Positions 2,180 through 62,501 of a stretch of 64,000 nucleotides of DNA are shown piece by piece. Location: positions 186,001 to 250,000 of the forward strand of contig UYFQ01000001.1 of assembly GCA_900617105.1 (NCBI GenBank), read 5' to 3'. Numbering within the stretch: position 1 is the first letter of the stretch; each line of letters opens with the position of its first letter. Position numbers and translations under genes: made by a program. Source of the DNA: Hydrurus foetidus (Eukaryota). The notes under the pieces are model-generated. The model saw nothing but the letters and a program-made list of their open reading frames with translations, did not search any database and had not been told where the DNA came from.

Positions 2180-3326
2180 TGCCTTGAATACTGTGGTAAT
2201 GGAAGTTCAGGGGCGAATGGGCTTGGTGACGCTGAACCGTCCCCAAGCGCTCAACGCTTTGAGCTTGGACATGATCCGCCAACTGACCACGGGCCTGCTG
2301 GCGTGGCGCGACGACCGCCAAGTGCTGGCTGTGGCCATACGTGGCATGGGCAAAGCCACTGACGGCAACCCTGCGGGCATACCCTTTGGTGCATTTTGTG
2401 CGGGGGGTGATATCCGCTTTTTCCACCAAGCTGCGCTCGCAGGTGATCCTGTGCTGGAGGATTTTTTCACCGAGGAATACACCCTCAACCATCTGATACA
2501 CACCTACCCCAAACCCTTCATGGCAGTGATGGACGGCATTGTGATGGGCGGGGGCATGGGCTTGGCCCAAGGGGCCAGCCTGCGCATCGTGACCGAGCGC
2601 ACCAAGATGGCCATGCCTGAGGCTGCGATTGGCCTGTTCCCTGACGTGGGTGGAGGCTACTTTTTAAGCCGTGCCCCAGGCCGCATTGGCGAGTATTTGG
2701 GCCTCACAGGCAGTGTCATCACAGGGCGCCAAGCGGTGGCCTGGGGTTTGGCGGACGGCTATATGGAATCCCAGCAACTGGTCAATATCTGGGCCAAGAT
2801 TGCCAGCTCACCCTTTGAGACCGGGGATGCTGCTGAGCATTGGTTTGCTACTCAATTCATAGCTGACCATGCGCATAAACCCAGCAGCAGAGGCCAAATT
2901 GATGCTGTTTTTAGCCTCGATACCGTAGCCGCTATGCTGCAAGCGTTGGATGCGATCGCTGATGCGGGCGACGCGACCCCAGCTGGTAGCTGCGCAGGCG
3001 CAGCCTGGGCCAAGGCCACGGCCACCGTCTTGCGCCAGCGCAGCCCGTTGATGCTGCATGTGGTGTTGGAGCACATTCGCCGCGCCCGTCACATCGGTTT
3101 GGCCGACGATTTGCGCATGGAGCGTGACATGGTGCGCCACTGCTTTCAGCTGCGCCCAGGGCTGGCCAGTGAAACGGTGGAAGGCATTCGTGCGTTGGCC
3201 GTGGACAAAGACCACAGCCCGAAGTGGAACCCTGCGCAACTTGAAGCGGTAACGCCTGACATGGTGTCCCCGTTTTTCGTCAGCCCCTGGCCTTCTCACG
3301 CGCATCCGCTGCGGCATTTGGGCTGA
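2172..3326 (+). CDS. Enoyl-CoA hydratase / 3-hydroxyisobutyryl-CoA hydrolase family
   Basis: LNRPQALNAL, FCAGGD, MGGGMG, MPEAAIGLFPDVG, EGIRALAVDKD motifs. Confidence 0.9.
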   Translation: MADALNTVVMEVQGRMGLVTLNRPQALNALSLDMIRQLTTGLLAWRDDRQVLAVAIRGMGKATDGNPAGIPFGAFCAGGDIRFFHQAALAGDPVLEDFFTEEYTLNHLIHTYPKPFMAVMDGIVMGGGMGLAQGASLRIVTERTKMAMPEAAIGLFPDVGGGYFLSRAPGRIGEYLGLTGSVITGRQAVAWGLADGYMESQQLVNIWAKIASSPFETGDAAEHWFATQFIADHAHKPSSRGQIDAVFSLDTVAAMLQALDAIADAGDATPAGSCAGAAWAKATATVLRQRSPLMLHVVLEHIRRARHIGLADDLRMERDMVRHCFQLRPGLASETVEGIRALAVDKDHSPKWNPAQLEAVTPDMVSPFFVSPWPSHAHPLRHLG

Positions 3327-3378
3327 GTGGGCAGAACGCCTTCCTCCTTTGGGGGAAGGTTGGGATGGGGGCTTTAAC

Positions 3379-3822
3379 TCAGTCGCGCCCTGCATCTGGC
3401 GACAGCATCGCCAGTACAAAATCAGGCAGCTGAGGTGTCTTCAATGCGGTAGCCAGTACCGTGCCCAGCGATACCAGCCGCCAAGGCCGCAACAGCACCG
3501 TTGCCACGCCCACGCCTGCTGCAATGCCTACCAGCTTCACGGGGTGTTCTTGGGCGAATTGGCTGAGCACGGGACGGGCAATGCCCAGGGCCAAGTTCAC
3601 GGGGTGGTGTTGCCACCACGTGCGTGCTGCATGTTGAAGGATGTGCCACGTTGCATTGGCGGTGCTGTGGTGCTGAGCCGCTGCAGCATCGTCGTCAAAA
3701 TCATCGGTTTCTGAAGCGTAGGCGGGCTGTGCTGCCCGTTTGTCGCGCGTCATGTGCTTGACCATCGCCTTGCGGCTGATCGCCAAGCGCTGTTGGGGGG
3801 TGAGGTGGGCGGTGTTGACCAT
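3379..3822 (-). CDS. YqjK-like hypothetical protein
   Basis: Third gene of an elaB/yqjE-like trio; C-terminal hydrophobic segment. Confidence 0.6.
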   Translation of the reverse strand: MVNTAHLTPQQRLAISRKAMVKHMTRDKRAAQPAYASETDDFDDDAAAAQHHSTANATWHILQHAARTWWQHHPVNLALGIARPVLSQFAQEHPVKLVGIAAGVGVATVLLRPWRLVSLGTVLATALKTPQLPDFVLAMLSPDAGRD

Positions 3823-3832
3823 GCCTGTACCT

Positions 3833-4198
3833 CTAGCGTACCTCGCGCAAGGCGCGGGTGTCGTTGTCAATTTGGGCGCTCAACTCCGGGAAGCGTTCGC
3901 TGCTCAAAGGCTTGCGGGCCGCCATGTACGCGATAAGCGTCAATAGCAGTGCACAACCCGGCACGGCCACCAAGATCCAGTGGAATTGGTTGTGCATCAC
4001 ACCGAACATCAGCGCAGTGCCTGCCAGCCCTAAAAATACCACCGCAGCCAACGCCGTCAGCAGCCAGGCTACCGTGCGGCTTAGCAGTTCAACCCCTGCG
4101 CTGGACGCTTCTTGTCGGAACAACGCGGCATAAGCTGAGAGGTGGTCAACGACCAGATCAGGGCGGTGAATCAGCGTTGAAAAAAGAGGGTGCAGCAT
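3833..4198 (-). CDS. YqjE / phage-holin-like two-TM membrane protein
   Basis: Two TM helices, downstream of a DUF883-like gene. Confidence 0.7.
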   Translation of the reverse strand: MLHPLFSTLIHRPDLVVDHLSAYAALFRQEASSAGVELLSRTVAWLLTALAAVVFLGLAGTALMFGVMHNQFHWILVAVPGCALLLTLIAYMAARKPLSSERFPELSAQIDNDTRALREVR

Positions 4199-4209
4199 GG
4201 GGCTGGATG

Positions 4210-4772: not shown

Positions 4773-5483
4773 TCAAACCCGCTCGAACACCACATCCCAC
4801 ACGCCGTGCCCGAGTTTGATGCCTCGGTTCTCGAACTTGGTCAAAGGCCGGTAGGCCGGTTGTGCGGCATAGCCATCCGCGTTGGTGGCGGTATTGCGCA
4901 GCAAGGGCTCAGCGCTCAGCACTTCCAGTATTTGCTCTGCATAGGGCTGCCAGTCTGTCGCGCAATGCAGGTAGCCACCGGGTTTCAGGCGGGCCGCCAG
5001 CTTGGCGACGAGGGGCGGCTGCACCAAGCGGCGCTTGTTATGGCGGGCTTTGTGCCACGGGTCGGGGAAGAAAATATGCACGCCATCAATGCTTTGCAGC
5101 GGCAGCATGTGGTCGATCACCTCCACCGCATCGTGTTGCAGGATGCGGATGTTGCCCAAACTCTGCTCGTCAATGCGCTTGAGCAAGGCACCGACACCGG
5201 GGGGGTGTACCTCGCAGCACAAGAAATTTTTCTCCGGCATCAGCGCGGCGATATGCGCAGTGGCTTCACCCATGCCAAAGCCAATTTCAAGCACCGTGCT
5301 TGTCTGGCGGGCGTAGGTAGCTACAAAATCAATAGTGGATGCGGTGTACGGCAAGATGAAGCGCGGGCCCAAGTCGGCCAGCGCCTTGGTTTGGCCGGTG
5401 GTGGTGCGCCCGGTGCGCAGCACGTAGCTGCGTTGGGGGCGACGAATCGGCTCTGGGGTAGGGGCAAGGGTGGGGGTGTTCAC
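4773..5483 (-). CDS. trmB: tRNA (guanine-N7)-methyltransferase
   Basis: [31 protein letters not shown] motifs. Confidence 0.97.
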
Positions 5484-6080: not shown

Positions 6081-6086
6081 GAATGG

Positions 6087-10842: not shown

Positions 10843-10849
10843 AAGCGCC

Positions 10850-13054: not shown

Positions 13055-14032
13055 TCAGTATGGTGCGTGGCTATGGGTATTGCCGTAACGTACACGCCAT
13101 GCTGCAACACCCCAAGCCAGCTGCGCACTGACAGTTGGGTTTGTTGCTGGCGTTTTCCCCAGACCCAGGGTGTGCAACGCGGCTGACAGCGCTTGCCCAG
13201 GGTCACGCAAATCCAACGCCGCTGCCCCGTTTTGCTTAGAGAGTTTTTCGCCATCCAGCCCCAGCACCAGCGGCGTGTGAAGGTACTGCGGCGTGGGCAA
13301 GCCCAAAGCGCGTTGCAGCAGGATTTGCCGGGCCGTGTTGTCGGCCAAGTCCGCACCACGCACGATGTGGGTGATGCCTTGTGCACCGTCGTCCACCACC
13401 ACGGCGAGCTGGTAGGCCCACAGGCCATCAGATCTTTGGAGCACGAAATCACCCGCATCGTTCGCTACGTCTTGGGTTTGCGGCCCGAGGCGGCGGTCAT
13501 ACCAGTGCAGTTTTGCTACAGTTTCAGGAGCTGGTATAGCACATCTTGATTGCGGTGCAAGCGGATTACCTTCAAAACTCTCTACCTTGAACGCCACGTT
13601 AAAGCGCCAAGCCCGTGCTGCACGGCCATTCAGCCCGTGGCGGCAGGTGCCGGGGTAGACCGGCTCGGCGTGGCGTTGGTGCGCCGCGCCAAGAGCTGCC
13701 AAAGCGGTGGCAATGTCTTTGCGCGAACAAGCGCAGCCGTAGGTTTGTTGGGTGGCAATGAGGTGGTCTAGCGCGGCTTGGTAAAGCGGGTTGCGCTGTG
13801 ATTGGCAGACCGGGGTTTCATCGGGCACCAAGCCACAGGCTGCAAGCTGTTGAAGAATGGTTTGCGCCGCACCGGGGATGCAGCGCGGCGTGTCCACGTC
13901 TTCGATACGCACCAGCCACCGCCCACCGTGTACGCGGGCATCGAGCCAACTGGCCAGCGCCGCCACCAGCGAGCCCGCGTGCAGCGGGCCGGTGGGGGAG
14001 GGGGCAAAGCGACCTGTGTACGCTGTGCCTAT
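13055..14032 (-). CDS. gluQ: Glutamyl-Q tRNA(Asp) synthetase (start uncertain)
   Basis: [37 protein letters not shown]; no anticodon-binding domain. Confidence 0.92.
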
Positions 14033-18562: not shown

Positions 18563-19051
18563 ATGCGTAAATTTCATCTTGCCGCCCTGGTCTTGTCCAC
18601 CCTAGCCACTGCCGCCAGTGCGCAAGCCGTGCGTACTGAACACAATATGTCGCTCGATCTGGCCAACCAGATTGCCGCTGCCACTGTCGCCACCTGCGCC
18701 GCCAATGGCTACGCCGTGACCGCCACCGTGGTGGACCGTGCTGGCAGCGTGCGTGCCGTGCAACGTGCAGACAACGCAGGCCCACACACACTGGGTGCCA
18801 GCCAGCAAAAGGCATTCACCTCCGCCTCCGCCAAAAACGCCACGCTGGCCATGATGGAAGGCGCTCAGAAGAACCCCGCAGCCGCCAATTTGGTCTACAT
18901 CCCCGGCTTTTTGTTGCTGGGCGGTGGTGTGCCGGTGAAGGTGGGCAATGAAGTCATTGGTGCCGTCGGCGTAGGCGGCGCACCTGGTGGCCACCTGGAC
19001 GAGCAGTGCGCTATGGCTGGAATCGATAAAGTGAAAGAATTTTTGAAGTAA
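18563..19051 (+). CDS. Secreted GlcG/HbpS family heme-binding protein
   Basis: Signal peptide; VVDRAG, KAFTSAS, GGGVP, GAVGVGGAPGGHLDEQC. Confidence 0.9.
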   Translation: MRKFHLAALVLSTLATAASAQAVRTEHNMSLDLANQIAAATVATCAANGYAVTATVVDRAGSVRAVQRADNAGPHTLGASQQKAFTSASAKNATLAMMEGAQKNPAAANLVYIPGFLLLGGGVPVKVGNEVIGAVGVGGAPGGHLDEQCAMAGIDKVKEFLK

Positions 19052-19123
19052 ATTGGCCTGTAGGCAAGGCTTTTATTGTGTAAAAAGCTATTATTTTGAT
19101 AGCTAATTGAAAAGAAAAACAGC

Positions 19124-22797: not shown

Positions 22798-22838
22798 CCG
22801 GGGTCAGATACCGTCTTGAAAGTCAACAGTTCTGACTG
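22798..22838 (-). mobile_element. Relic right end of a second copy of the IS110 element, with its target half-site
   Basis: 40/41 identical to 23022-23062. Confidence 0.9.
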
Positions 22839-23014
22839 GCTTTGTTGCACAAATACGTTGCAGGCCAAGGTTACCCCAGCCCCAGGCGAGGCTACGCCAC
22901 AGCGACCGTCACAGGACGCCCCAACTTGGTAAAGCGGTTGAGTACCGCCGCTAGCACTTGCAACTCCACGACTTGACTCTTAAAGGTTCGCGCCATGACA
23001 CGTTCGCCCAAACA
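22838..23014 (-). mobile_element. IS5 family (IS903 group) 3' remnant with terminal IR
   Basis: Translates LGERVMARTFKSQVVELQVLAAVLNRFTKLGRP; IS903-like end GGCTTTGTTGCACAAAT at 22838-22854. Confidence 0.8.
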
Positions 23015-23027
23015 CAAGAATCCGGGA

Positions 23028-24113: not shown

Positions 24114-24310
24114 GATCCACCTCGTATGCGGGCTCACCAGCACAAGGCAGCGGCCCAAGTTACCGTTCGATCTTTGATGGAACGAATAATGGATCGGGGG
24201 ACTTATCTGACCCATGAGCTTCAATGCTCAAAGTCTTGCCAGCCTCTCCCGACCCAGCCTGTTCAATCAAACAATTCAAGCTTAACTGCTCGGCAGATTG
24301 AATATACGAG
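23030..24310 (-). mobile_element. Complete IS110 family element (IS621-like) bounded by CT cores
   Basis: Left end CT-CGTATATT, right end ACGGTAT-CT on the minus strand; no TIR or TSD; long non-coding left end. Confidence 0.92.
24114..24296 (-). ncRNA. Predicted bridge RNA (target- and donor-binding loops); ends approximate
   Basis: Guides LTG 24231-24239, RTG 24207-24213, LDG 24158-24166, RDG 24121-24127 match target and donor; each pair is separated by a hairpin. Confidence 0.85.
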
Positions 24311-24548
24311 GTCTTGCAATGACGCATCCACGATGCTGATCTATGCGTCCTGTCCGAAATAACCCCTTAGCCGCTCATTCCTTGGGCGCGACTAGCTACA
24401 GAATAGATAGCATCTAAAGCGTAAAAGCTACCCGCCACCCCTTAGCCGTTGGCTGGGGTTTGGGGGGCCGCAGCTTGCGCAGAGATGGGTCAGTTCTTTC
24501 ATCGCAACATTAAAACCACGCCACTGAATCCCCCTCTAAAATTTCCCC

Positions 24549-25457: not shown

Positions 25458-25517
25458 AGATTTGCTCCTAAAGTAATAGCTGCTACAGCACATTCACAAA
25501 GTACTACAGCCTCATTG

Positions 25518-25610
25518 TTTTCGGGCTACCCCGATTGCCGCGACGACACCATGAAAGCTATGAACCTCGCGCTCAGTCTGGGCAAGGACAAGCGCTTTTT
25601 TATCGAAACC
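25518..25610 (+). repeat. Copy of an internal queC segment (15942-16034)
   Basis: Manual alignment 84/93 identical; encodes [14 protein letters not shown]. Confidence 0.9.
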
Positions 25611-27146: not shown

Positions 27147-28547
27147 ATGAAATCATTTTTCCAGCGGGTTTTGCCCCAAGTTTTTAGCGTACCTTCGCCT
27201 GCAGAGACTTCTACAGCGCCCGCCTTTGGTGTCCCAGCGGCCAAGCTGCCTGAAGTCGTGCCTCCCAAAGCACCGGCGGTAATGACTGTTCGTCGACCGT
27301 TGATTTCTGTCAACGGTGACGTGGCCGGATTTGAATTTCGCGTCGATAGCGAAGCGCTGAAGTTATTGCAAAAAAGTGCTGATGTGCAAGTAATATCATC
27401 GTATGTTGCTACTATATTAATAGCGGCAAGATTGGTGGCAATGGAAGGCCGCATTGGTTTTGCCCGACTGCCAGCCGCGTGGTGGGTGCATGCCGCAGTG
27501 CCTAAAAACGAGTCGGGTACATGGATGGGCTTGGAGTCCGAGGCCGGTGAGCTTTTGGCCCCTGACGTGCAGCTTGCCGTGGCGGGCGTGATGCAGCAGT
27601 TTCGCGCTGCGGGAGCCAAACTGGCTTGGGAGCCTTCACTGGATTTGGGCGCGGCAGAGTTGTTGCCCGATTTCTTGTTGCTGGGGCTGACTACCCATGC
27701 GATGACGACATTGCTGGACAGTGTCAAAACCAGTCCACCCGCACTGCGGCACCTGCCCATCATCTTGACCGACATTGCCAACGTTGAAGACTTAGAACTG
27801 GCTCTGCAAAGCGGTGTCAGCTACGCCAGCGGGGTGATGGCTGCAGCAGCGCCTGTGCCTGTTGCCTCGGGTCATGCCGGGGGGGATGACGCAGTCACCA
27901 AAGGCATGGGGGATGCACAGCCCCTGCCGCCCGAAGTCAGCCGCGTGGCTCAACTGTTGCACCAGCTCAGCTCAGGCGCGGATACTGAGTTGATCGTCAG
28001 TGCCATCAAGGGCGATATCGGTTTGTCGTTCCGCTTGTTGCAGCGTATTAACAGCGCCAGTTTTGCACAATTAGGCGCAGCGGCCAGCATCGACCAAGCT
28101 GTGCTGATGTTGGGGCGCAACGAGTTACAGCGCTGGCTTTCGTTGATGCTGATGCAGTTCACAGGCATGCGCAAAGCCGGATCAGCGCTGCAAGAAATTG
28201 CGCTTTGGCGCTCGCGGCTGGTGGAGTTACTGGCTATCGAGCAGGGCGAAGCCGAGCCAGGGCAATTCTTCACGCTCGGGCTGGCGTCCATGCTGGGCAT
28301 GTTGCTCAACACCACCACGGCGGAGGTGGTGAAGATTTTGAGCTTGCCACCGCTGGCCGCGCAGGCGCTGCTGGAACACACCGGGCCTTGGCATGTCTAC
28401 TTGCGCACCGCTGCACAGGTGGAGGCGCAAAAAGTGACTGAAGCCCAAGTTATTGCCGATGGTTTCGCCAGCGCGGCGCGGGTGATGGAAATTTCTAACG
28501 ACGCTTGGGCTTGGGCTGCGGCGAACTCAGACCGAAGCAAGCGCTGA
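27147..28547 (+). CDS. Degenerate EAL plus HDOD domain signalling protein
   Basis: C-terminal HDOD (LSFRLLQRINSA, SIDQAVLMLG); EAL catalytic motifs absent. Confidence 0.8.
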   Translation: MKSFFQRVLPQVFSVPSPAETSTAPAFGVPAAKLPEVVPPKAPAVMTVRRPLISVNGDVAGFEFRVDSEALKLLQKSADVQVISSYVATILIAARLVAMEGRIGFARLPAAWWVHAAVPKNESGTWMGLESEAGELLAPDVQLAVAGVMQQFRAAGAKLAWEPSLDLGAAELLPDFLLLGLTTHAMTTLLDSVKTSPPALRHLPIILTDIANVEDLELALQSGVSYASGVMAAAAPVPVASGHAGGDDAVTKGMGDAQPLPPEVSRVAQLLHQLSSGADTELIVSAIKGDIGLSFRLLQRINSASFAQLGAAASIDQAVLMLGRNELQRWLSLMLMQFTGMRKAGSALQEIALWRSRLVELLAIEQGEAEPGQFFTLGLASMLGMLLNTTTAEVVKILSLPPLAAQALLEHTGPWHVYLRTAAQVEAQKVTEAQVIADGFASAARVMEISNDAWAWAAANSDRSKR

Positions 28548-29854: not shown

Positions 29855-30580
29855 CTAACGTGCAGCTACGGTGCGCAAGACCGCGTCCATCACAAACGTT
29901 TCCCAATGCGCCAGCGCGTCGGGGGTTTCCAGGTTTTCACCCAAAAAGGCGGACAGGGTGTAGCGGTTCGAGAGGTAAAAGTAGCCCATCGACGCGATCA
30001 GCAAGTAAACATCGCGGGCTTGCAAGTCGGCTCGAAACAGCTTTTGCGCTGTGCCACTGACCAAAATTTGCCCGATGACGGCAATGGCGGGCGAGGAATA
30101 GTCTTTCGCGCGCAGGCTTTTGGCGATGTGCCTGCCTTTGTGCAGGTTTTCGGTGTTCAGCAGGGTGATGAATTCGGGGTGGCGGCGGTAGTAGTTCAGC
30201 ACAAAGCGGATCACCGCGCTCAACGCCTCTACCGGGTGCGCCACGTCCAAGGTCAGCTTGGATTCCGCTTCGTTCATTTGGCGGTAAATACCTTCCAGAA
30301 CCTCAATATACAAGCCTTCTTTGCTACCAAAGTAGTAGTAAATCATGCGGTCATATGACTGGGCTGCGGTGGATATTTGGCCCACGCTGCCGCCGTCGTA
30401 GCCGTGTTTGGCAAAAATTTTGGTGGCCGCTTTGAGGATGCCGTCGCGCGTGGCTTGCGCACCCTGTTCGCGGATGCCGGGTTTAGCGGACTTGGTGGCC
30501 GATTTTGCTGATTTCACCGCCTTGCCACCCGGCGAGGCAGCCACCACGGGGTGGCGTTTGGGCTTGGCGGTGGTGGACAT
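29855..30580 (-). CDS. TetR family regulator (RutR/NicS-like)
   Basis: RMIYYYFGSKEGLY HTH; LLNTENL. Confidence 0.9.
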   Translation of the reverse strand: MSTTAKPKRHPVVAASPGGKAVKSAKSATKSAKPGIREQGAQATRDGILKAATKIFAKHGYDGGSVGQISTAAQSYDRMIYYYFGSKEGLYIEVLEGIYRQMNEAESKLTLDVAHPVEALSAVIRFVLNYYRRHPEFITLLNTENLHKGRHIAKSLRAKDYSSPAIAVIGQILVSGTAQKLFRADLQARDVYLLIASMGYFYLSNRYTLSAFLGENLETPDALAHWETFVMDAVLRTVAAR

Positions 30581-31369: not shown

Positions 31370-31512
31370 GGGCAGAAATGTGAAGTTGGAATTCGGCGGA
31401 ATTCAGGTGGCAGGAGTGAAGGCAGTGAACCTTCGCGTTAACCCTCTATTGTCCAAGAAACTACCTGTTGCTTCAGGCATATGCTTATGCTAAATTCTGA
31501 ATCATTAATTTA

Positions 31513-31552
31513 ATGTAGCAATTACAACATTTTTATTAAGTGTATGCTACAT
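31513..31552. promoter_or_regulatory. Inverted repeat ATGTAGCA...TGCTACAT in the AT-rich divergent promoter (candidate TetR operator)
   Basis: Arms at 31513-31520 and 31545-31552. Confidence 0.45.
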
Positions 31553-31586
31553 AAAAATATCTAAATTGATCGAACTACTCCCATGA

Positions 31587-35555: not shown

Positions 35556-36782
35556 ATGACTATTTCACGCACCCCCTCAAGCACGCTTTACCGCGCCACC
35601 GTCACCGCCACGCTGCTGATGGTGTCTGCCGCTGTGTCCACTGCCTACGCGCAGGGCGTGATCAAAATCGGTGAAGTCAACAGCTACAAAGCCCAGCCCG
35701 CCTTCTTGGAACCCTACAAAAAAGGCATGGAGCTGGCTGTGGAAGAGATCAATGCCGCAGGTGGTGTGAACGGCAAAAAACTTGAACTCATCACCCGTGA
35801 CGACAACGCCAATCCAGGTGACGCAGTGCGCGTGGCCGAAGAGTTGATTTCCCGCGAAAAGATTGATGTGCTGACCGGCACCTTCCTTTCCAACACCGGC
35901 TTGGCGATGACCGATTTCGCCAAGCAAAAGAAATTCTTCTTCCTCGCCGGTGAGCCACTCACCGACAAAATCATCTGGGGCAGTGGCAACAAATACACCT
36001 ACCGCCTGCGCCCTGGCACTTACATGCAGGCCGCGATGCTGGTGCCTGAAGCCGTGAAGATGAAGAAAAAGCGTTGGGCCATCGTGTACCCCAACTACGA
36101 ATACGGCCAATCGGCTGTCGCTGCCTTCAAAACCCTGCTGAAAGCCGCTCAACCGGATGTGGAATTCGTGGTGGAACAAGCCTCCCCCTTGGGCAAGCTG
36201 GATGCGGGCAGCGTGGTGCAGGCGCTGGCCGATGCCAAGCCTGATGCGATTTTCAACGTGCTGTTTGGCGCTGATTTGTCCAAGTTCGTGCGCGAAGGCA
36301 ATACCCGTGGTTTGTTCCAAGGCCGTGAAGTCGTGAGCGTCTTGACCGGTGAGCCCGAGTACCTCGATGCGCTGAAAGACGAAGCCCCTAACGGCTGGGT
36401 CGTCACCGGTTACCCCTGGTATGGCATCCAAACGCCTGAGCACAAAGCCTTTTTCTTGGCCTACCACGGCAAGTACAAAGATTACCCACGCCTTGGCTCT
36501 GTGGTTGGCTATACTGCTATTAAATCTATAGCAGCCGGCCTGAAAAAAGCCAAGAGCAGTGAAACCGAAAAACTCGCCGCTGCCTTTTCGGGCCTGCAAG
36601 TGGACAGCCCGTTTGGCAAGATCACCTACCGCGCCCAAGACCACCAGTCCACGATGGGGGCGTATGTGGGGAAAACCAAAAACGAAGGTGGCAAGGGCGT
36701 GATGGTGGATTACAGCTACTTTGACGGTGCGAAGTATTTGCCCAGCGATGCGGAAGTGAAAAAACTCCGCGCACCTGACTGA
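35556..36782 (+). CDS. ABC transporter substrate-binding protein (LivK-like)
   Basis: Signal peptide; EINAAGGVNGKKLELITRDD. Confidence 0.92.
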   Translation: MTISRTPSSTLYRATVTATLLMVSAAVSTAYAQGVIKIGEVNSYKAQPAFLEPYKKGMELAVEEINAAGGVNGKKLELITRDDNANPGDAVRVAEELISREKIDVLTGTFLSNTGLAMTDFAKQKKFFFLAGEPLTDKIIWGSGNKYTYRLRPGTYMQAAMLVPEAVKMKKKRWAIVYPNYEYGQSAVAAFKTLLKAAQPDVEFVVEQASPLGKLDAGSVVQALADAKPDAIFNVLFGADLSKFVREGNTRGLFQGREVVSVLTGEPEYLDALKDEAPNGWVVTGYPWYGIQTPEHKAFFLAYHGKYKDYPRLGSVVGYTAIKSIAAGLKKAKSSETEKLAAAFSGLQVDSPFGKITYRAQDHQSTMGAYVGKTKNEGGKGVMVDYSYFDGAKYLPSDAEVKKLRAPD

Positions 36783-42801: not shown

Positions 42802-45800
42802 GCGAGAACACGGTTTTTCGACGTGCCAGCAGTGCCTTGAGCCGTGCGGATTTCCATGCGGCTACGGGGGTGTTGCTGGTGGTTCGTGAACCGTCTCCTG
42901 CGGCCATCCCAACACCCGGTCAACCCACTGCTGTGTCCGCCAATCCCGCAGAGGGGGTTGAAATTCTGCTTGCTGTGTGGGACGACGGCAGTGTCACCGC
43001 TTTGCATGGTCACGTCGATTTAGGCACCGGCCTGCGCACCGCGTTGGCGCAAATCGTGGCGGAGGAGTTGGAGGTGGCTGTGGCCGACATCACCGTGGTG
43101 ATGGGCAACACCGCCAGTGCGCCCAACCAAGGGGCCACCATCGCCAGCGCGTCGATCCAGGTGCATGGTGAGCCGCTACGCAGGGCTGCGGCACAGGCGC
43201 GGGCTTGGTTGTTGGCGCAAGGGGGGGATTTGGGGCATCCCAGCACCTTGAGCGGTCAGCATGTCGCGTTACAGCTCGACTTGCAAACCCCCGTCAAGAA
43301 GCCGCAGGATTACCACACCGTGGGCCAGTCCGTTCCCCGCGTGGACATGCACGACAAGCTCACCGGCAATCTGGTGTTCGTCCATGACATGCGTGTCCCC
43401 GGTATGTTGCATGGCCGCGTGGTGCGCCCGCCCTATGCGGGGGCTGACCACGGCGAGTTCATTGGCAACACGCTGGAATCCGTCGATAAAACCTCCATAG
43501 CCCACATCCCCGGCATCCGCGCCGTGGTGGTGATCCGTGATTTCGTGGGCATCGTGGCCGAGCGCGAAGAGCAGGCGGAACAAGCCCTGCGGGAACTGCG
43601 TGTGCAGTGGAAGCCCTGGCCAGGGATGCCCGATGTGCAGGACTTGGCTCAAGCGCTGCGCAACAACCCTTCAACGAAGCGCCAACTGGTGGACGAGGGC
43701 GATGTTGACGCGGCCATGGCCCGTATCAACGCAGGCGCGGGCACCGCCATGCCGCGCACCTATGTCTGGCCCTACCAAATGCACGCCTCTATCGGGCCGT
43801 CTTGCGCGGTGGCTGATTGGAGGGGTGAAGCCATGAATGTCTGGGCGGGGACGCAAAACCCCCATGTCCTGCGCTTTGATTTGTCCCGCCTGATGGGCCT
43901 GCCCGATGTGGCGATCAACGTGATCCGCATGGAGGCCGCAGGCTGCTATGGCCGCAATGGCGCGGACGATGTGGCGGCTGATGCTGCACTGCTTTCCCGC
44001 GCTGTGGGGGCACCCGTGCGCGTGCAGCTGACCCGCGAGCAAGAGCACCTGTGGGAACCCAAAGGCGCGGCGCAACTGATGGAGGTGCAGGGCGGTTTGA
44101 CACCCGAGGGGGAGGTGGCTGCTTACGATTTTCAAACCTCTTACCCTTCCAACGGAGCACCCACGCTGGCGCTGCTGTTGACGCGCACTGTAGAGCCGGT
44201 CGCCCAAGCCTTTGAGATGGGCGACCGCACCGCCCGCCCGCCTTACGGCTACACCAACCTGCGCGTCAGCGTGAACGACATGCCGCCGCTGGTGCGGGCT
44301 TCGTGGCTGCGCGGTGTGTCCGCACTGCCCAATTCGTTCGCACACGAGTCCTACATTGACGAATTGGCTACCGCAGCGGGCGTTGACCCGGTGGACTTCC
44401 GTCTGCGGTACTTGAACGACCCGCGTGCCGTCGAGCTGGTGCAAGCCACGGTGCAAAAAGCCGGTTGGAAGCCCCACACCCAAGCGCAACTTCAGCCCGC
44501 TGAGGGGGATATCCTCCACGGCCAGGGCTTTGCATATGCCCGCTACGTCCACAGCAAATGGCCCGGTTTCGGGGCGGCGTGGGCGGCGTGGGTGGCCGAT
44601 GTGGAGGTCAACCGCCGCACCGGCGAAGTCCATGTGCGGCGCGTGGTGGTGGGGCACGATGCGGGCATGGTGGTCAACCCGGCAGGGGTGGAGCACCAAA
44701 TCCACGGCAACGTGCTGCAAGCCACCAGCCGCAGCCTGAAAGAGCGTGTGCCGTTCACGCCCGGCACGAACACCGTTGCCACCCAAGAGTGGGGCAGCTA
44801 CCCCATCCTGAGTTTTCGTGATGTGCCCGTCATCGAGATCATGCACATGCCCCGCCAGGGCGAGCCGGCGCTGGGGGCGGGGGAATCGTCGTCGGTGCCG
44901 GGTACAGCCGCCATCGCCAACGCCATTTTTGATGCCACCGGCGTGCGTTTTCGCGAGCCACCCTTCACGCCTGAGGTGGTGCGGGCTGCGTTGAATCCAG
45001 AAAACTCATCCAATACGCCTTCATTGCATATTCCATCAGTGGGGGTGGCTATCAATAGCGTAGCGATGGAGTCTGAGTTAGCTGCCTTGCCTTGGCCGCA
45101 GCGCCGCTCGTTTTGGGGCAAAACGGGGACGTTGGTGGTGGGCGTGTTGGGCTTATTGGGTTTGGGGGCGGCACTGCTGGGCTGGCGCTCGTCCATCGCC
45201 CCCTTGGTGCCTGCCACGGCCCCATTGCAGCCGTCCATCTACACCGCCGCCACCGTAGAGCGGGGCCGTCAGCTCGCCGCTGTGGGCGATTGTGCTGTTT
45301 GCCACACCGCCGCCGGAGGCGCTGCAAATGCTGGTGGGCAGCCGCTGCACACGCCTTTTGGCACCGTCTACAGCACCAACCTCACGCCGGACGTTGAAAC
45401 CGGACTCGGGTCGTGGTCGCTCGCGGCCTTCCAGCGGGCCATGCGCGAAGGCATCTCCCGCGATGGCCACCACCTTTACCCCGCCTTCCCCTACACCGCC
45501 TTTGCCAAAACCAGCGACGACGACCTGACCGCGCTGTACGCCTACCTGATGGCGCAACCGGCAATCAAAGCCGCCACGCCCCCAGCGCAAATGCGCTTCC
45601 CGTTCAACCTGCGTCCATTGATGGCGGGCTGGAATGCGCTGTTCCACGATGCCACGCCTGCACAGCCTGTACCGAGTCAATCCGCAGAATGGATGCGTGG
45701 GGCCAGTTTGGTCAACGGACTGGGCCATTGCGGTGCCTGCCACACGCCGCGCAACGCCTTGGGTGCGGAGCAAGGCGGACGTGCGTACTTGTCCGGTGCC

Positions 45801-46436
45801 CTGGTCGATGGCTGGGAAGCCCCAGCGCTTACCGCCTTGTCGAAATCCCCCGTGCCCTGGACGGCAGACGCGCTCTACAGCTACCTGCGCCACGGCCATG
45901 CGCCCGAGCACGGCAGCGCCGCTGGCCCTATGGCCCCAGTGGTGCGCGAGCTGGCCGCTGTGCCCGATGCCGATATCCGTGCTATGGCTACGTATTTGGC
46001 CTCATTTCAGAATTCATCACAGGATCAAAAACAGGCTGTACCGCATGCTGATAGCGCTACAAATGCTATTAATAACAAAGCGAATGAATCCCTTCTTTCA
46101 TCTCTCCTACCTGGTGCCACCCAACGCCTGTTCACCGGTGCATGTGGAGCCTGCCACCACGACGGCGACGGTCCGCGTCTGCTGGGGTTGAATATCCCGC
46201 TGGGCCTCAGCAGCAAGCTCCACAGCGACAGGCCCGACAATTTGCTGCGGGTGATGCTGGACGGCATTCAGCAACCCGCTGGGCCACAGGTGGGTTTCAT
46301 GCCCGCGTTCAGGCACAGCCTGTCGGATGCACAGATCGCCGAATTGGCGGGCTACCTGCGCCAGCGCTATGCGCCGGGCAGGGCGGCTTGGTCTGATTTG
46401 GTGGAGGCCGTGGCACGGGTGCGGGGCTTGGACTGA
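42798..46436 (+). CDS. Molybdopterin subunit fused to three cytochrome c domains (NicB-like)
   Basis: Xanthine dehydrogenase-type Mo domains plus CAVCH, CGACH, CGACH. Confidence 0.9.
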   Translation: MSENTVFRRASSALSRADFHAATGVLLVVREPSPAAIPTPGQPTAVSANPAEGVEILLAVWDDGSVTALHGHVDLGTGLRTALAQIVAEELEVAVADITVVMGNTASAPNQGATIASASIQVHGEPLRRAAAQARAWLLAQGGDLGHPSTLSGQHVALQLDLQTPVKKPQDYHTVGQSVPRVDMHDKLTGNLVFVHDMRVPGMLHGRVVRPPYAGADHGEFIGNTLESVDKTSIAHIPGIRAVVVIRDFVGIVAEREEQAEQALRELRVQWKPWPGMPDVQDLAQALRNNPSTKRQLVDEGDVDAAMARINAGAGTAMPRTYVWPYQMHASIGPSCAVADWRGEAMNVWAGTQNPHVLRFDLSRLMGLPDVAINVIRMEAAGCYGRNGADDVAADAALLSRAVGAPVRVQLTREQEHLWEPKGAAQLMEVQGGLTPEGEVAAYDFQTSYPSNGAPTLALLLTRTVEPVAQAFEMGDRTARPPYGYTNLRVSVNDMPPLVRASWLRGVSALPNSFAHESYIDELATAAGVDPVDFRLRYLNDPRAVELVQATVQKAGWKPHTQAQLQPAEGDILHGQGFAYARYVHSKWPGFGAAWAAWVADVEVNRRTGEVHVRRVVVGHDAGMVVNPAGVEHQIHGNVLQATSRSLKERVPFTPGTNTVATQEWGSYPILSFRDVPVIEIMHMPRQGEPALGAGESSSVPGTAAIANAIFDATGVRFREPPFTPEVVRAALNPENSSNTPSLHIPSVGVAINSVAMESELAALPWPQRRSFWGKTGTLVVGVLGLLGLGAALLGWRSSIAPLVPATAPLQPSIYTAATVERGRQLAAVGDCAVCHTAAGGAANAGGQPLHTPFGTVYSTNLTPDVETGLGSWSLAAFQRAMREGISRDGHHLYPAFPYTAFAKTSDDDLTALYAYLMAQPAIKAATPPAQMRFPFNLRPLMAGWNALFHDATPAQPVPSQSAEWMRGASLVNGLGHCGACHTPRNALGAEQGGRAYLSGALVDGWEAPALTALSKSPVPWTADALYSYLRHGHAPEHGSAAGPMAPVVRELAAVPDADIRAMATYLASFQNSSQDQKQAVPHADSATNAINNKANESLLSSLLPGATQRLFTGACGACHHDGDGPRLLGLNIPLGLSSKLHSDRPDNLLRVMLDGIQQPAGPQVGFMPAFRHSLSDAQIAELAGYLRQRYAPGRAAWSDLVEAVARVRGLD

Positions 46437-56491: not shown

Positions 56492-57900
56492 CATCTCGTT
56501 ATACACAAATCCCCTGAGCCAGAAGCTCCCGTGAGAACCTGATCCCAGCAGCGAAGTCAATGATGCGCTGCATACCCAGCCAGATGGTTTTGACACCCGG
56601 CTCCCCATCCCCTTTGCGTGCCAAGAAACCACCCAGACGAGCGACCAGTCGAACCACTTCATTCAGGGTGGGCGGCTTGTCCGGTATCTTTTCTTTGTTC
56701 AGGATGTAGGCGGCCTTCCATTCATCCGCCTCAAACATGAGTGCCGCATCCATTTCCGGGCAACTGCGCCCCAGTCGCATCAGCCGCGCAATACGCCACG
56801 CGACGATCATGTACATCACCACCGCACGCTCGATCCTGTCAATGTCGCCCAGCTGCAATGCCTCCACGTGGCAACCGTTCTTGAGGACATGGAAGAACAT
56901 CTCTATCTCCCAGCGGGCGCGGTACCAGTCGATCATCTCGGTGGCCTGTGCCAGTGTGGCCACGTCCCGGTTGGTCAGCAGTCGCCATTCGATGGCCGTC
57001 TGTCCCGCTGGTGGTGTCATCTCGCGTGCCACGATGCAGCTGGCTGTGACAAAGCCGCCTTTGCCGTCGCGCAGTTGCACGGTTTTAGCCCACACCTGTT
57101 GCTCTACCTCGCGGGTGGCTTTGCCCTGTCGCGCAGGCATGGTGAAACGGATCGTGCCCAGGGCTTGGGTGGCCGTTACTTGGGGCCACAGTTTGGCTCC
57201 CGCCCCCAGTGCGCGGTTGTGTTTGGAGCGCACCAGCCAGTCCACCGGGGTTTGGAGTTCGCGGGCACGCACCATTAACTCCATGATGTCGGCCTCGCGG
57301 TCTGCCAAGTACACCAGTCGGGTAAGGGGCAGCAGCGGGGCTATCTCGGCCAGGCGTTCGTAGCCTTCTGTCCAGCGCAAACTCTCGCTGACTCCGGGGC
57401 GTGTGCCGTCAGCATTTTTTGCCTTGCGTGCCCACATCCATGCGTCCAGCACGCCCAGCGGTTCGCGGGTGGTAGAAATGGCGTAGGTGGGGTGCAGGTA
57501 CATGCCGCGCTGTGGGGCGTAGCTCAGGGGTCCCAGTCCCGCAGCTTGTTGGCCGTTGAAGTCGAGTTCGGTGGTGTCTTGGATGCACAGCACGACGGGG
57601 TGCGCCGCCATACGGGTCATGCTGCTTTGGACGTGGGGCTCCAAGATGTCAGTCCATTCGAAGGCATCGTTGTCGAAGAAGCGGTACGCCCCCAAGGTGT
57701 CGGCCCAGTCCCCGCAGGCTTGGGGATGCTACCGGTGGGCATCGCGCTGAAGCCTTCCATCATCTTGATTGCACGTTTGTTGCGCCTCTTGTCGCCCAAA
57801 TCCATCGTCTCAAACTCCCTTTTTGCCCAGTTCACTTGTGTTTCATGCTATTAAATTCGCAGCATACCTTAGGCTCGGGAGAGTTGTGTATAACGAGATG
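56492..57900 (-). mobile_element. IS4 family (IS50/Tn5-like) element, transposase frameshifted near 57720
   Basis: Perfect 17-bp IR CATCTCGTTATACACAA; LGDKRRNKR, IQDTTEL, ADREAD, YRARWEIEMFFHVLK. Confidence 0.92.
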
Positions 57901-58292: not shown

Positions 58293-59264
58293 TCATCCGT
58301 AGCTGTGAAGTCCAGCCCAATCCGTTGCAGCAGCCAGCACATCCTCACCATCGCACGCCACCACATGCCGCTCGGGCATGGAGCGCAGCCAAGTGATTTG
58401 GCGTTTGGCGAGTTGACGGGTGGCGATGATGCCGCGTTCGCGCAGCTCGGCCATGGGCAAGCTGCCGTCGAGCGCTTCCCAGGCTTGGCGGTAGCCTACG
58501 CAGCGCATGGACGGCAAATCGGGGTGCAGATCGCCACGTTGGCGCAGCGCTTTGACTTCGTCCATGAAGCCTGAATCCAGCATTGCGTCAAAGCGTTGGG
58601 CGATGCGCTGGTGCAGCCATGCACGGTCTGTGGGTTCTAAAGAAATAAGCCGGTATGCGCAGGCTGTATCTGCATCAGCAGCTATGGTTTTTACAGTGAA
58701 AAAACTGGACATGGGCTGACCGGTCAGCAAATAGACCTCCAGTGCCCGCTGAATGCGTTGGCTGTCATTAGGGGGCAAGCGGGCGGCGGTGGGGGGGTCT
58801 ACGCGGGCCAGCTCGGCGTGCAGGGCGGGCCAGCCCTCGGCGAGGCCACGGGCACTCAGCGTGGCACGCAGGGTGGCGTCGGCACGGGGCAGGTCGTCGA
58901 TACCGTCCATCAGCGCTTTGAAGTACAGCATGGTGCCACCCACCAGCAAGGGGATGGCACCTCGGGCGCGGATCTCGGCGATCAGGCGCTGTGCATCGGC
59001 CACAAATTCGGCGGCGCTGTAGGCTTGCAGCGGGTCGCGGATGTCGATCAGGTGGTGGGGCACGTCGTGCATCTCTTGGGCGCTGGGTTTGGCGGTGCCA
59101 ATGTCCATGTGCCGGTAGACCAGGGCGGAATCGACGCTGATGATTTCGGTTTTCAGGCCGCGTGCCGCCCAGTGCGCGGCCAGTGCCATAGACAACGCTG
59201 ATTTGCCGCTGGCGGTGGGGCCGGCAATGCCCAACCAAGGGTGTTTGGGGGGTGTTTTTACCAT
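58293..59264 (-). CDS. miaA: tRNA dimethylallyltransferase
   Basis: [35 protein letters not shown]. Confidence 0.97.
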
Positions 59265-59278
59265 CGTCTCGTCATTTT

Positions 59279-60529
59279 TTATCGTTGTGTTGGCGCATTA
59301 CCGCTTATGGGGTGTGCTACGGCAGCTATTGTTTTAGGAGTTGCTCCGTACTTGCCCACCAGCACCCAGGCAGAGAACGCGATGCAGGCGCTCCAGAACC
59401 AGATACCCAGCACCAGCGGCCACACGGTGCCGTCGATATGGGTGCCCAGCCAGCCACCCATCGCGAAGGCGGCCAGCATCATGATGAAGCCGTTCAGCGC
59501 CGATGCGGTGCCTGCTGCGTGGGGGAAAGGCCCCACCGCGCCACTTTGGCTGCACGGCTGGTGGATGCCGTGGCCCAGCATGAACAGGAAAAGCGGCAGC
59601 ATGATGGCCCAACCGTTGTGCAACCCCGCGTAAGCCAGCGCCGCCATCACGCTGCCCCCCGTCAGGCTCAGCACGCCCGCTACTGCCACCGCACGCGGCA
59701 CGCCCAAACGGGGCACCAGTCGCCGGCACAGCAGGGTGCCCAGGATGTAGACGAACGACATGGAAAACATCACCAGCCCGTACTGTGTCTTGCTGTACCC
59801 CAGCACCTTGATGAAGACGAACGAGGACGATGCCAAGAACGTGAACAGCCCTCCATACGAGGACGCTGCCAAGGCCGAGAACGCCAAAAACGTGGGGTTG
59901 GCCATGATGGCTCGCCATTGCCGCGCCAAGCGCAGTGGCTCCAGCGCCTGGGGGTTCACGGCCCGGATGCTTTCTTTGAACTTGAGCGCGATCAGCCCCA
60001 GCGTACCGGCCCCGAACACCGCCAGCGTCAGCATCGCCACCCGCCAGCCCAGCAAATCGGACAGCAACCCGCCCAGCGGCGCGCTCAGGCAGGCAATCAC
60101 GCCCAGACCAGAGAGCCCTTTGGACATGGCATTGGCCCCGGCCACCGGTTCGTACAAATCGCGTACCAGCGCCCGCGCGCACATCACGCCCGCGCCCATC
60201 GCGATGCCCTGCACCACGCGAACGCCAATCAGCCACGGCATGGACGGCGCAAACACAATGGCGATGGACGCGAGCGTGTACAGCCCCATGCCCCACAGCA
60301 ACACCGGGCGGCGGCCAAAGCGGTCAGACAGCGGCCCCCACACCAGCTGCGAGAGGCCAAACGCCAGCAGCAGGGCCGTCAGCGTGAGCTGCGTTTGCGC
60401 CATGCTGGCCCCAAAGCCTTCGCTCAAAGCGGGCAGAGCAGGCAGGTAGAAATCGGTGGTGATAGGTTGTAAGCCGAGCAGCAGTGCGAGGATCAAGACG
60501 ACGAGAGAGGTTGGCATGGGGTAGGTCAT
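59279..60529 (-). CDS. Bcr/CflA family MFS efflux transporter
   Basis: [21 protein letters not shown]. Confidence 0.93.
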
Positions 60530-60581
60530 TGTTTCGGGTGAGGGCAAAGGTGGTGGTGACCGACATAAGAGCGATGTTGAT

Positions 60582-62501
60582 CTACCGCCCCCGCATAAAC
60601 AAGCCATCCAACTCGCGCACGCTCATTTGCCGCCAAGTGGGCCGCCCGTGGTTGCATTGGTCAGAGCGGTCGGTGGCTTCCATTTGGCGCAGTAAGGCGT
60701 TCATTTCTTCGAGGGTCAGTTTGCGGTTGGCCCGCACCGCGCCGTGGCAGGCCATCGTACCCAGCAGCTCGTTGCGGGCGCGTTGGATCACGGTGCTGGC
60801 CTCGTGCATGCCGAGTTCGGCCAGCACGCTGCGGGCGAGTTCTACCGGGTCGCCATGGAACAGGCTGGTGGGCACGGCCCGCACAGCCAGGGTTTTGGGC
60901 GAAAAGGGCGTGACCTCCAAGCCCAGGGTGTGAAGGGTGTCCACATGGGCCTCAGCAGTGGCGACTTCTTGCGGGGATGCCGCAAAGGTGGCCGGGATCA
61001 GCAGCGGCTGGCTGGTTATGCTGTCCCCGTCGAGCTGTGTTTTAAGCCGCTCGTAGACGATGCGCTCGTGCGCTGCGTGCATGTCCACAATCACCAGCCC
61101 CTGCGCGTTTTCAGCCAAGATGTAAATACCGTGGAGCTGCGCTACGGCACGGCCCAACGGCCAGACGCTTTCTGTTGCTGATGGCTGAGCCACCGCGATG
61201 GCCTCATCTTCACTCCCTCTCCCCCTGGGAGAGGGCTGGGGGGAGGGCACCCCCCGCACCGGCCACATCGCCTCAAAATCCGCCAACTTGTCCGACACCC
61301 GATGCCCCGCTTCTGCAACTCCTAAAGGCATAGCGGTCTGCGCCCATCGCATCTGCGGTAAAGCCTGTTTGGGTTCCGAAATAACCGGCCCCGCTACCGG
61401 CATATCCAACAGCGCCGCGCCCTGGCTGCTGCGCGGCACCGCCAGCGCGTTTTCCACCGCGTGCCGCACCGCTTGATGCACCTCGCGCCCATCGCGAAAG
61501 CGCACCTCAATCTTGGTGGGGTGGACGTTCACATCCACCCGCGTCGGGTCGATCTCCACGTAGAGCACGTACACCGGTTGCCGCCCGCCGTGCAGCACGT
61601 CCTCATAGGCCGCCCGCGCCGCGTGGCTGATGACCTTGTCGCGCACAAACCGGCCATTCACGTAGGCGAACTGCTGGTCAGCCCGCGAGCGTGCCGCGTC
61701 CGGAATCCCCACCCGGCCATGCACGCGCACCGGGCCGTGGGTGTGTTCTACAGCGACGGACTGGGCTATGAAATCCTCACCCAGCACGTCGCTCAGGCGC
61801 TGCGCTGTGGACGATGTGGCTGCAGCAGAACCCTCCACAACCACCGCCCGCCATTGCTCCACCAACTTGCCTTCACTCCAAATCGCAAAACCCACCCCCG
61901 TGCGCACCAGCGCGTGGCGGCGCACGCTGTCGATGCAGTGGGCAAGTTCCGTCGCGTCTTTCTTCAAAAACTTGCGCCTCGCCGGGGTGCTGAAAAACAG
62001 CTCGCGCACCTCCACCGTGGTGCCCTGCGCCCGTGCAGCAGGGGTGAGTTCACCCGTCAAAGATTCCAACTGGTAAGCCGTGGTTTCGCCCACAGTGCGG
62101 GACAGTAATGCAGTGTCAGCTACAGAACTGATAGCGGCCAGCGCCTCGCCGCGAAATCCCATCGTGCCGACAGACTCCAAATCGGTCAGCGAGGTGATCT
62201 TGCTGGTGGCATGGCGTTTGAAGGCCATCGGCAGCTCATCACGTGGGATGCCGCCGCCATCGTCTTCCACACGTATGCTGCGCACACCACCGGCCAGCAG
62301 TCGCACGGTGATCTGCGTGGCCCCCGCGTCCAAGGCGTTGTCCACCAGCTCACGCACCACGGCGGCGGGGCGTTCGATCACCTCACCGGCTGCGATTTGG
62401 CTGATGAGTTCGTCGGGCAGCTCCCGTATGCTTTGGCGGGTAGCGGCACGGATGCCGGTGGGTGGAGTGAGGGGCTTGGTGGTGGGGCGGGGAGAAGACA
62501 C
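60582..62501 (-). CDS. mutL: DNA mismatch repair protein MutL
   Basis: IAAGEVIERP, GFRGEAL, DMHAAHER, CNHGRP. Confidence 0.97.
   Translation of the reverse strand: MSSPRPTTKPLTPPTGIRAATRQSIRELPDELISQIAAGEVIERPAAVVRELVDNALDAGATQITVRLLAGGVRSIRVEDDGGGIPRDELPMAFKRHATSKITSLTDLESVGTMGFRGEALAAISSVADTALLSRTVGETTAYQLESLTGELTPAARAQGTTVEVRELFFSTPARRKFLKKDATELAHCIDSVRRHALVRTGVGFAIWSEGKLVEQWRAVVVEGSAAATSSTAQRLSDVLGEDFIAQSVAVEHTHGPVRVHGRVGIPDAARSRADQQFAYVNGRFVRDKVISHAARAAYEDVLHGGRQPVYVLYVEIDPTRVDVNVHPTKIEVRFRDGREVHQAVRHAVENALAVPRSSQGAALLDMPVAGPVISEPKQALPQMRWAQTAMPLGVAEAGHRVSDKLADFEAMWPVRGVPSPQPSPRGRGSEDEAIAVAQPSATESVWPLGRAVAQLHGIYILAENAQGLVIVDMHAAHERIVYERLKTQLDGDSITSQPLLIPATFAASPQEVATAEAHVDTLHTLGLEVTPFSPKTLAVRAVPTSLFHGDPVELARSVLAELGMHEASTVIQRARNELLGTMACHGAVRANRKLTLEEMNALLRQMEATDRSDQCNHGRPTWRQMSVRELDGLFMRGR

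Follow-up and report, generated by a model that had tools for sequence, protein, structure and literature searches.

Among the closest described systems to the element studied here are the DNA uptake sequences (DUS) and the uptake signal sequences (USS), whose hallmarks are the occurrence on both strands, favoured reading frames, location in variable protein regions and a bias towards the core genome (PMC2397512, PMC2817400). DUS lie about 1-2 kb apart, a spacing ascribed to a match with the size of conversion fragments, and new DUS often arise by recombination (PMC2397512). Tong, Schliekelman and Mrazek (2017) listed unnamed spaced motif pairs as potential novel motifs, and two of these correspond to columns of our element, namely GCTTAT(N5)AAGCG from Acidovorax ebreus and ATAGCT(N22)CAAAAG from Polaromonas naphthalenivorans; the tables of the same paper contain the core for A. 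ebreus and Rhodoferax ferrireducens, overlapping core pairs for P. naphthalenivorans and, weakly, core pairs for Variovorax paradoxus (PMC5217627). The present work concerns a stretch of 64,000 nucleotides (positions 186,001 to 250,000 of contig UYFQ01000001.1, assembly GCA_900617105.1), called the window below, in which a sequence-only reading had pointed out a dispersed motif with the core GCTAY-N7-RTAGC and a one-sided tail. That reading knew of no assigned function; the Tong fragments are listed without one (PMC5217627). Our analysis indicates that the element is very probably kept as a double-stranded recognition signal, read by a trans-acting factor at the level of whole lineages.

All seven exact cores were found at their reported coordinates, whereas 100 dinucleotide shuffles gave 0.03 on average and never more than 1, and allowing one mismatch gave 20 cores as compared to 2.95 expected. 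The remaining cores of the original list carry one mismatch (5320, 13515, 25464 and 46065) or two (58681, 59325 and 61318). Both GCs of the tail are exact at all nine positions for which this had been claimed; the tail is missing at 36516 (score -4) and weak at 62119. Each of the 11 cores called intragenic lies inside the open reading frame (ORF) named for it. The enrichment survives codon-preserving shuffles: in the coding sequences of the window (n = 53, 55.5 kb; the HDOD start was placed after 27408 in this set), a matrix derived from a different genome gave 8 matches vs. 0.32 (maximum 2) in 200 synonymous-codon shuffles, and exact cores were 4 vs. 0.245. With a combined matrix, 15 window copies score at least 18 and none does in the reversed window; three of the 15 had not been listed before (30323, in a TetR gene, 31503 and 57847). 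Thirteen window copies can be aligned free of gaps, and the mean identity at non-key columns in the window is 0.34 (maximum 0.50). The copies of the window are as follows.

2847..2910, forward strand: copy in the 3-hydroxyisobutyryl-CoA hydrolase gene, sense, length-neutral; exact core, score 36-40.
5273..5336, reverse strand: copy in trmB, sense, length-neutral here; core with one mismatch, both tail GCs exact.
13515..13578, forward strand: copy in gluQ, antisense, a whole-element in-frame insertion of about 21 codons by ortholog comparison; core with one mismatch.
19040..19103, reverse strand: intergenic copy; exact core, score 41.
24348..24411, reverse strand: intergenic copy between an IS110 gene and an Rpn-like gene; exact core, score 21.
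25464..25527, forward strand: intergenic copy directly 3' of the Rpn-like gene; one-mismatch core, score 34.
27361..27424, reverse strand: copy in the HDOD-domain ORF, antisense; exact core, score 44.
30276..30339, reverse strand: weaker copy in a TetR gene, absent from the first list; score 21-23.
31503..31566, forward strand: weaker intergenic copy, absent from the first list; score 19.6.
36516..36532, no strand assigned: tail-less core in a solute-binding protein gene; exact core, full-matrix scores -4 and -2.
45001..45064, reverse strand: first copy in a molybdopterin/cytochrome c (nicB-like) gene, antisense; exact core, score 28.
46018..46081, reverse strand: second copy in the nicB-like gene, antisense; one-mismatch core, score 35.
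57800..57863, reverse strand: weaker intergenic copy adjoining an IS4 gene; score 18-21.
58634..58697, reverse strand: copy in the variable loop of miaA, sense, examined by ortholog comparison; both tail GCs exact.
59278..59341, reverse strand: copy in a Bcr/CflA MFS gene, forming a C-terminal extension; two-mismatch core, both tail GCs exact.
61318..61381, forward strand: copy in the MutL linker, antisense, examined by ortholog comparison; two-mismatch core.
62072..62135, reverse strand: copy in MutL directly after the conserved GFRGEAL, without indel by codon alignment; exact core, weak tail (13).

The MutL protein of the window falls in Comamonadaceae, its nearest relative being the metagenome-assembled genome G001 (82% identity), and the genome-wide tests described below were run on the genomes of relatives rather than on the window's own. 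Matrices of 64 columns, built from 400 kb each of G001 and G222, lengthened the unit from the roughly 50 bp first proposed to about 64 bp. They show RCTWY, an A/T tract, RTAGC at columns 13-17, GC at 25-26, GCGC at 38-41, GGCC at 46-49 and A/T tracts at 51-54 and 61-64. The spacing is rigid: when core spacers of 3-11 were allowed, 72 of 92 matches had a spacer of 7, and GCGC started at column 38 in 70 cases and in no more than 4 at any other column. The A-tracts recur with a period of 10.5-11 bp, a pseudo-symmetry is centred on column 32, and three copies in G222 are fully two-armed. Pairing between the arms is no higher than independent columns predict, with only a weak linkage of columns 27 and 36. 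Since there is no hairpin covariation, a double-stranded reading fits, and from the rigid spacing, the phased A-tracts and the use of both orientations we infer recognition as double-stranded and probably bent DNA. A structured RNA was rejected on the same covariation result, on the balance of sense and antisense copies and on an Rfam search that returned 0 matches. In 1.2 Mb of G222, which contain 180 sites (0 in the reversed control), the ends are no more inverted than in shuffled sequences (4.34 vs. 4.32), no clear target-site duplication was found (direct words 4.12 vs. 3.90, six-letter words in 14 vs. 10 of the 180 copies) and the maximum identity of any pair of copies is 80%. No duplication is evident at the gluQ junctions either. 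A recent miniature inverted-repeat transposable element (MITE) had been doubted from the start, and rightly so, because terminal inverted repeats (TIR), clear duplications and near-identical copies are all lacking.

Orthologous genes of element-rich and element-poor genomes (rich and poor hereafter) reveal three in-gene situations, namely length-neutral overlay, whole insertion, and partial insertion or replacement. The hydrolase site (2847) is occupied in 11 of 12 rich genomes and in none of 11 poor ones; its segment has 51 residues in the window, as it does for most rows of either group, and the peptides encoded there vary freely. At the ATPase site of MutL (62119) a score of at least 18 is reached in 5 of the 12 rich genomes and in none of the 22 poor ones, without indel, the segment being of 46 residues in the window, in 10 of 12 rich rows and in 16 of 22 poor rows. 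At the gluQ site (13515; 26 of 27 loci, the truncated one of G257 being dropped), the element occurs in 12 of the 13 rich genomes and in none of the 13 poor ones. Filled alleles span 49-68 residues as compared to 29-37 in 12 of 13 poor rows, the remaining poor row having 55 residues without element; G277 differs from G265, G273 and G263 by exactly 21 codons, and the rich G288 is empty while its close relative G274 is filled. At the trmB site (5320; 28 of 29 loci, the partial one of G141 being dropped), the window and G001 carry the left part of the element with no change in length, four genomes have the full element and 10-14 additional residues with it, and the element is absent from 8 of 13 rich genomes and from all 15 poor ones. 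The description of the motif as written into coding sequences thus holds for the hydrolase and MutL ATPase sites, but not for the whole insertion at gluQ, nor for the partial one in the four trmB genomes. Because an inserted 30-63 bp that match the tail are implausible by point mutation, a templated copying step probably exists or existed.

Two more sites show the same division. The miaA loop carries the element in 8 of 8 rich and 0 of 18 poor genomes and is about 4-5 residues longer with it, and the MutL linker scores at least 18 in all 11 rich genomes covered and in 1 of the 22 poor ones. Contigs from a relative's sequencing run span the miaA site free of gaps; in the same contigs, 27 scattered bases are missing at the far end of the MFS copy, which is not a clean empty site. 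For the mutL region, nucleotide pairwise alignments were too noisy for distant pairs. The linker copy (61318-61345) coincides with a short peptide of the form Q-x-x-hydrophobic-x-F/L, which element-free genomes also keep and which resembles a sliding-clamp motif.

The element is constrained at the DNA level, including silent positions. In fact, over 76 ortholog pairs of two Rhodoferax genomes, fourfold-degenerate A/T bases at key columns are identical in 24 of 25 cases as compared to a background of 985 of 4598 (21%), where columns were counted from both genomes and about half are independent. The element sits in variable regions of these proteins (70% vs. 86% identity), and two reading frames are favoured (55 of 74). 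Spacer letters follow the dialect of the genome: copies at orthologous loci match the intergenic matrix of their own genome in 10 of 11 rows and in-gene copies do so in 22 of 28, 19 of 25 and 28 of 34 cases, although the G001 matrix is flat and assignment to G001 is partly an effect of composition. Similar element-encoded peptides occur in unrelated Rhodoferax proteins, and the sites are missing in G263, a poor genome nested among rich Polaromonas. The simplest account of lineage-wise retention and concerted change, both switched off by lineage, is therefore one putative trans-acting reader.

These data bear on the view that the family is a neutral remnant of an ancient MITE burst, copies inside genes having lasted only because their peptides became fixed. 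The divergence of the window copies suggests that they are old, in-gene copies make up a higher share in degenerate than in homogeneous genomes (35 of 60 vs. 30 of 180), and whole-element insertion exists. Nevertheless, we consider this view very improbable and no longer live, as it is largely refuted by the conservation of silent key bases; moreover, spacing is rigid, the DNA pattern persists across genera in which the encoded peptides vary freely, neither TIR nor a clear duplication was seen, and the nested poor genome G263 lacks the sites.

One element occurs per about 4-7 kb in this bacterium and many relatives. The full pattern had at least 20 matches in 35 of 251 Comamonadaceae genomes (up to 461) and none in 154, and 300 other genomes of the class, including three unpublished ones, showed no enrichment (highest count 10, control 20). 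Among 50 named genomes, most Polaromonas, Rhodoferax and one Ramlibacter have the element in abundance; Hydrogenophaga, Limnohabitans, Comamonas, Delftia, Pseudorhodoferax and Sphaerotilaceae are at or near control level, and Variovorax isolates have 9-45. Within the genus of G271 (Polaromonas) the distribution is bimodal: 63 of 81 genomes have at least 50 matches, 18 (one of them unpublished) have at most 19, and none lies between.

Mobile and acquired DNA was considered as well. Five plasmids of family members contain 4 pattern matches in 1.37 Mb vs. 28-94 per Mb on chromosomes, and sites are depleted near genes of low GC at third codon positions, a proxy for recently acquired DNA (19 of 137 vs. 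212 of 759). Five virus records, selected for having at least one match, hold 25 sites in 315 kb, and 89 of 120 IMG/VR matches score as real copies. When one copy was compared by blastn with plasmids and phages, 2 of 7 plasmid matches were from Comamonadaceae and 3 weak phage matches were obtained. In four places of the virus records (L163:2992, L163:3943, L190:2986 and L140:3648), the element stands at the start of a small ORF and encodes a hydrophobic N-terminus; three of these N-termini look like lipoprotein or secretion signal peptides.

On four single-contig chromosomes with the origin placed at dnaA, 127 of 243 sites are on the leading strand and there is no gradient from origin to terminus (quartiles 53, 76, 60 and 54, P 0.13); a strand run suggested by the site listings disappeared once tested relative to dnaA. 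Chi, KOPS, matS and SlmA sites show replichore polarity or a restriction to origin or terminus. A polar or domain-restricted chromosome signal was rejected on these counts, and the segregation-type role offered by the sequence-only reading is disfavoured because neither pattern is present. Intergenic copies prefer convergent gaps (41 of 108) over tandem (98 of 501) and divergent ones (11 of 141), a preference also reported for the A. ebreus motif (PMC5217627). LysR-type operators have the form T-N11-A and lie at the promoters of a regulon. The remark that the core fits T-N11-A does not lead to such an operator: divergent gaps are the least used and many sites are deep inside genes.

The convergent preference, together with the rigid dyads two helical turns apart, the pseudo-symmetry about column 32, the A-tract period and the lack of hairpin covariation, would suit the site of a cytoplasmic DNA-bending or DNA-wrapping protein (a nucleoid organiser or topology helper), with weak selection on each site and spread by a separate copying route. 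All the evidence for maintenance fits this explanation equally, and we regard it as live, though unlikely. Against it, promoter avoidance alone could yield the convergent bias, no gradient or strand bias is seen along the chromosome, resident plasmids are nearly element-free and the histone fold PF00808 turned up in none of 5 rich genomes. The 130-bp Topo-Seq profile of Escherichia coli gyrase has its best placement about 1.5 standard deviations above background (correlation 0.35, P 0.10); the fit is loose, a mild excess such as any phased sequence might give, and the odd symmetry of the core is unlike a 4-bp staggered cut.

A reader or a copying enzyme was sought by presence profiling of 38 rich and 31 poor genomes. 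No gene tracking the element was found among the families profiled. The proposal of a selected protein-binding site is borne out as regards constraint on the DNA, survival of the enrichment in codon shuffles and agreement with double-stranded reading, but a co-occurring binding protein did not appear among the families tested. Y1_Tnp (36 of 38 rich, 26 of 31 poor) does not discriminate and reverse transcriptases (19 of 35 rich vs. 4 of 17 poor) do not track the element.

A single-copy TIRYT/RAYT-like gene is present in most genomes tested, upstream of gltB where the neighbour was read (L088:5500-6251 in G001, and 48 further loci, L273-L282 and L338-L377); we call this transposase TIRYT because of its GGGGWSAS flanks. 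For 49 of 50 loci (G286 gave no match), an element copy is fused to the 3' repeat of TIRYT in 15 of the 25 rich genomes and in none of the 24 poor ones, and intact HUH plus catalytic Tyr were seen in 24 of 25 rich vs. 18 of 24 poor genomes (P 0.049). The protein ends in a basic GRP tail that resembles an AT-hook. The distance from this GRP tail to the 3' repeat, determined with three more loci omitted, is 68-88 bp in rich and 17-112 bp in poor genomes. At the TIRYT 3' site of the poor genomes G003, G283, G281 and G280 (L368, L366, L370 and L372) there are apparent worn traces of an element, which hint at loss rather than at an element that was never present.

These observations are relevant to a selfish replicator resembling the repetitive extragenic palindromic (REP) sequences or the Rickettsia palindromic elements (RPE), for which a host enzyme, TIRYT being the candidate, would insert copies and re-convert partial matches with no need of a host function. 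Block insertion at gluQ, partial replacement at trmB and the concerted dialects, including the similar peptides encoded in unrelated Rhodoferax proteins, are in its favour, as are the adjoining copies and the intact catalytic residues of TIRYT in rich genomes. We judge it rather improbable, even if still live: Y1_Tnp is also found in poor genomes, reverse transcriptases in only about half of the rich ones, TIRYT has GGGGWSAS repeats of its own, no pair among 180 copies exceeds 80% identity, and the arms of the element do not co-vary whereas HUH enzymes bind hairpins. As a lead for the copying enzyme TIRYT is weak, because ordinary sites are equally shared across genera (the MutL linker even more often than the TIRYT-side copy), one rich genome (G083) lacks the catalytic Tyr and there is no hairpin signal.

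Mobile genes in the window were inspected too. The Rpn-like PD-(D/E)XK gene (24549-25457) has an in-frame stop at about 25086 and two flanking copies whose tails point outward; with its protein as query, a match was found in 0 of 5 rich genomes, which also counts against the replicator. A 40-bp direct repeat with a first word of TIRYT type lies at the 3' end of IS110 and another such word lies upstream (22800-22840, 23024-23063 and 24184-24213), so IS110 may be inside a TIR-type repeat. IS110 beside 24395 gave no sign of targeting the element.

Returning to the maintained recognition signal, its service in sequence-biased DNA uptake followed by recombination is the version that we put forward, tentatively and at less than even chances, by analogy with DUS and USS. 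Copies arrive as blocks, as the full 63-bp insertion at gluQ and the partial replacement at trmB show, presumably copied from another element. A site then persists across genera where the family is abundant and is missing in lineages without it, with its silent key bases conserved and its spacer letters following the dialect of the host genome, as observed. A single lineage-level trans-acting reader, contacting about six helical turns of bent DNA around the pseudo-dyad at column 32, would account for the all-or-none pattern. The least sure step places this reader in the uptake path of the type IV pilus, where fragments with a better match may enter and recombine more frequently, in the manner of DUS and USS. 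Such a drive would account for the use of both strands, the frame preference, the permissive regions, the core bias and the dialects, and also for the presence in prophages, the scarcity on plasmids and the spacing in G222, which is evener than a one-per-gap model (coefficient of variation (CV) 0.83 vs. 0.98, P 0.012). Acidovorax temperans and Verminephrobacter eiseniae are naturally transformable and show signs of donor specificity (PMC4212676). All 38 rich genomes profiled encode ComEC, as do most of the poor ones.

Several points weigh against uptake. V. eiseniae, although selective, has only an unrelated motif pair in the supplement of Tong et al. (PMC5217627). With 64 bp and dyads, the element greatly exceeds in length the 9-11 bp cores of DUS and USS, and its sites are sparser than DUS; the raw CV of spacing in two Rhodoferax stretches was 0.80 and 0.91. 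Scarcity on plasmids and a bias to the core are equally compatible with REP-like repeats and with chromosome-binding sites, the virus records were pre-selected for a match, and the dialect result suffers from the flat G001 matrix. Among the components of the uptake machinery, ComEC (38 of 38 rich, 28 of 31 poor) and the ComP_DUS-family pilin (36 of 38 rich, 30 of 31 poor) do not discriminate, and canonical ComEA above the cut-off was found in 0 of 69 genomes, the model having mostly matched frames of about 800 residues. Pilin charge and TIRYT columns showed no clean split between rich and poor genomes. In the rich genome G011 (C1:1836740-1837544) comEC lies in three frames, by frameshift or sequencing error.

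It is possible, if short of an even bet, that we are dealing with a third, independently evolved and much longer genome-wide self-recognition signal, seeded in blocks, driven in place by its reader, rewriting residues of MutL, TrmB, MiaA and GluQ and switched off by lineage. If it is an uptake signal, it is one outside Neisseriaceae and Pasteurellaceae, the families of DUS and USS in PMC2397512 and PMC2817400, and its block insertions bear on the origin of such signals, a question left open by PMC2397512. Should it instead be a chromosome-binding site, a new protein that wraps DNA is to be expected in this family, which is common in freshwater and soil. In both cases, a DNA-level pressure visibly shapes essential proteins, and since 63 rich and 18 poor genomes coexist in one genus, the reader should be findable by ordinary gene-content profiling.

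The sequence has already been listed in fragments and is thus not itself new. A search for a fuller description yielded none beyond those of Tong et al., subscription papers and the Pinel thesis being outside its reach. As far as the available parts of PMC5217627 go, the fragments differ from the present element in being separate pentamer pairs rather than one 64-bp unit, and come without analysis of ortholog sites, of insertion vs. replacement, of silent sites or of dialects. What is added here is the series of inserted, partial and neutral copies seen when orthologous sites are compared, the counts that show retention to be all-or-none, the division of a single genus into two modes and the negative profiling of candidates.

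Compared with the known systems, the element lacks membership of the MITE and REP families and has some features of DUS and RPE. BRE and VeiPR1 are likewise repeats from the same bacterial group; BRE, however, is a different family because it is 75-91 bp long with 69% GC, often tandem and present in at most 29 copies (PMC3110155), and VeiPR1 has been called unique to V. eiseniae (PMC3975124). With the REP/BIME/REPIN-RAYT systems and TIRtrons the element shares hundreds of chromosomal copies, a convergent bias and occasional in-frame copies (PMC3733652, PMC6006769, bioRxiv 10.1101/119735); a copy also lies beside a Y1 transposase gene in part of the rich genomes, a gene that poor genomes have as well. 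It differs from these systems in having neither a covarying stem nor near-identical copies, in that doublets are rare and conserved codons are overlaid length-neutrally, and in that the adjoining TIRYT has its own TIR repeats; membership of REP/REPIN was rejected for want of a stem-loop with a 5' tetranucleotide guide, pairing being at the level of independent columns. The main text of PMC3733652 names none of the genera searched for. RPE are likewise small repeats that invade coding regions in frame (PMC1166351, PMC3733652), a feature seen at gluQ and partly at trmB and miaA, but not at the hydrolase or MutL ATPase sites; in addition, RPE are described as insertions, whereas many of the present sites leave the length unaltered and preserve the DNA pattern at silent positions. 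A further likeness is with DUS and USS, of Neisseriaceae and Pasteurellaceae, respectively, which are also found on both strands, core-biased, in permissive coding regions and in favoured frames (PMC2397512, PMC2817400), conserved beyond their flanks, varied by lineage and renewed in part through recombination, whereas the present element is several times longer, built of dyads, sparser, and able to enter a gene as a 63-bp block.

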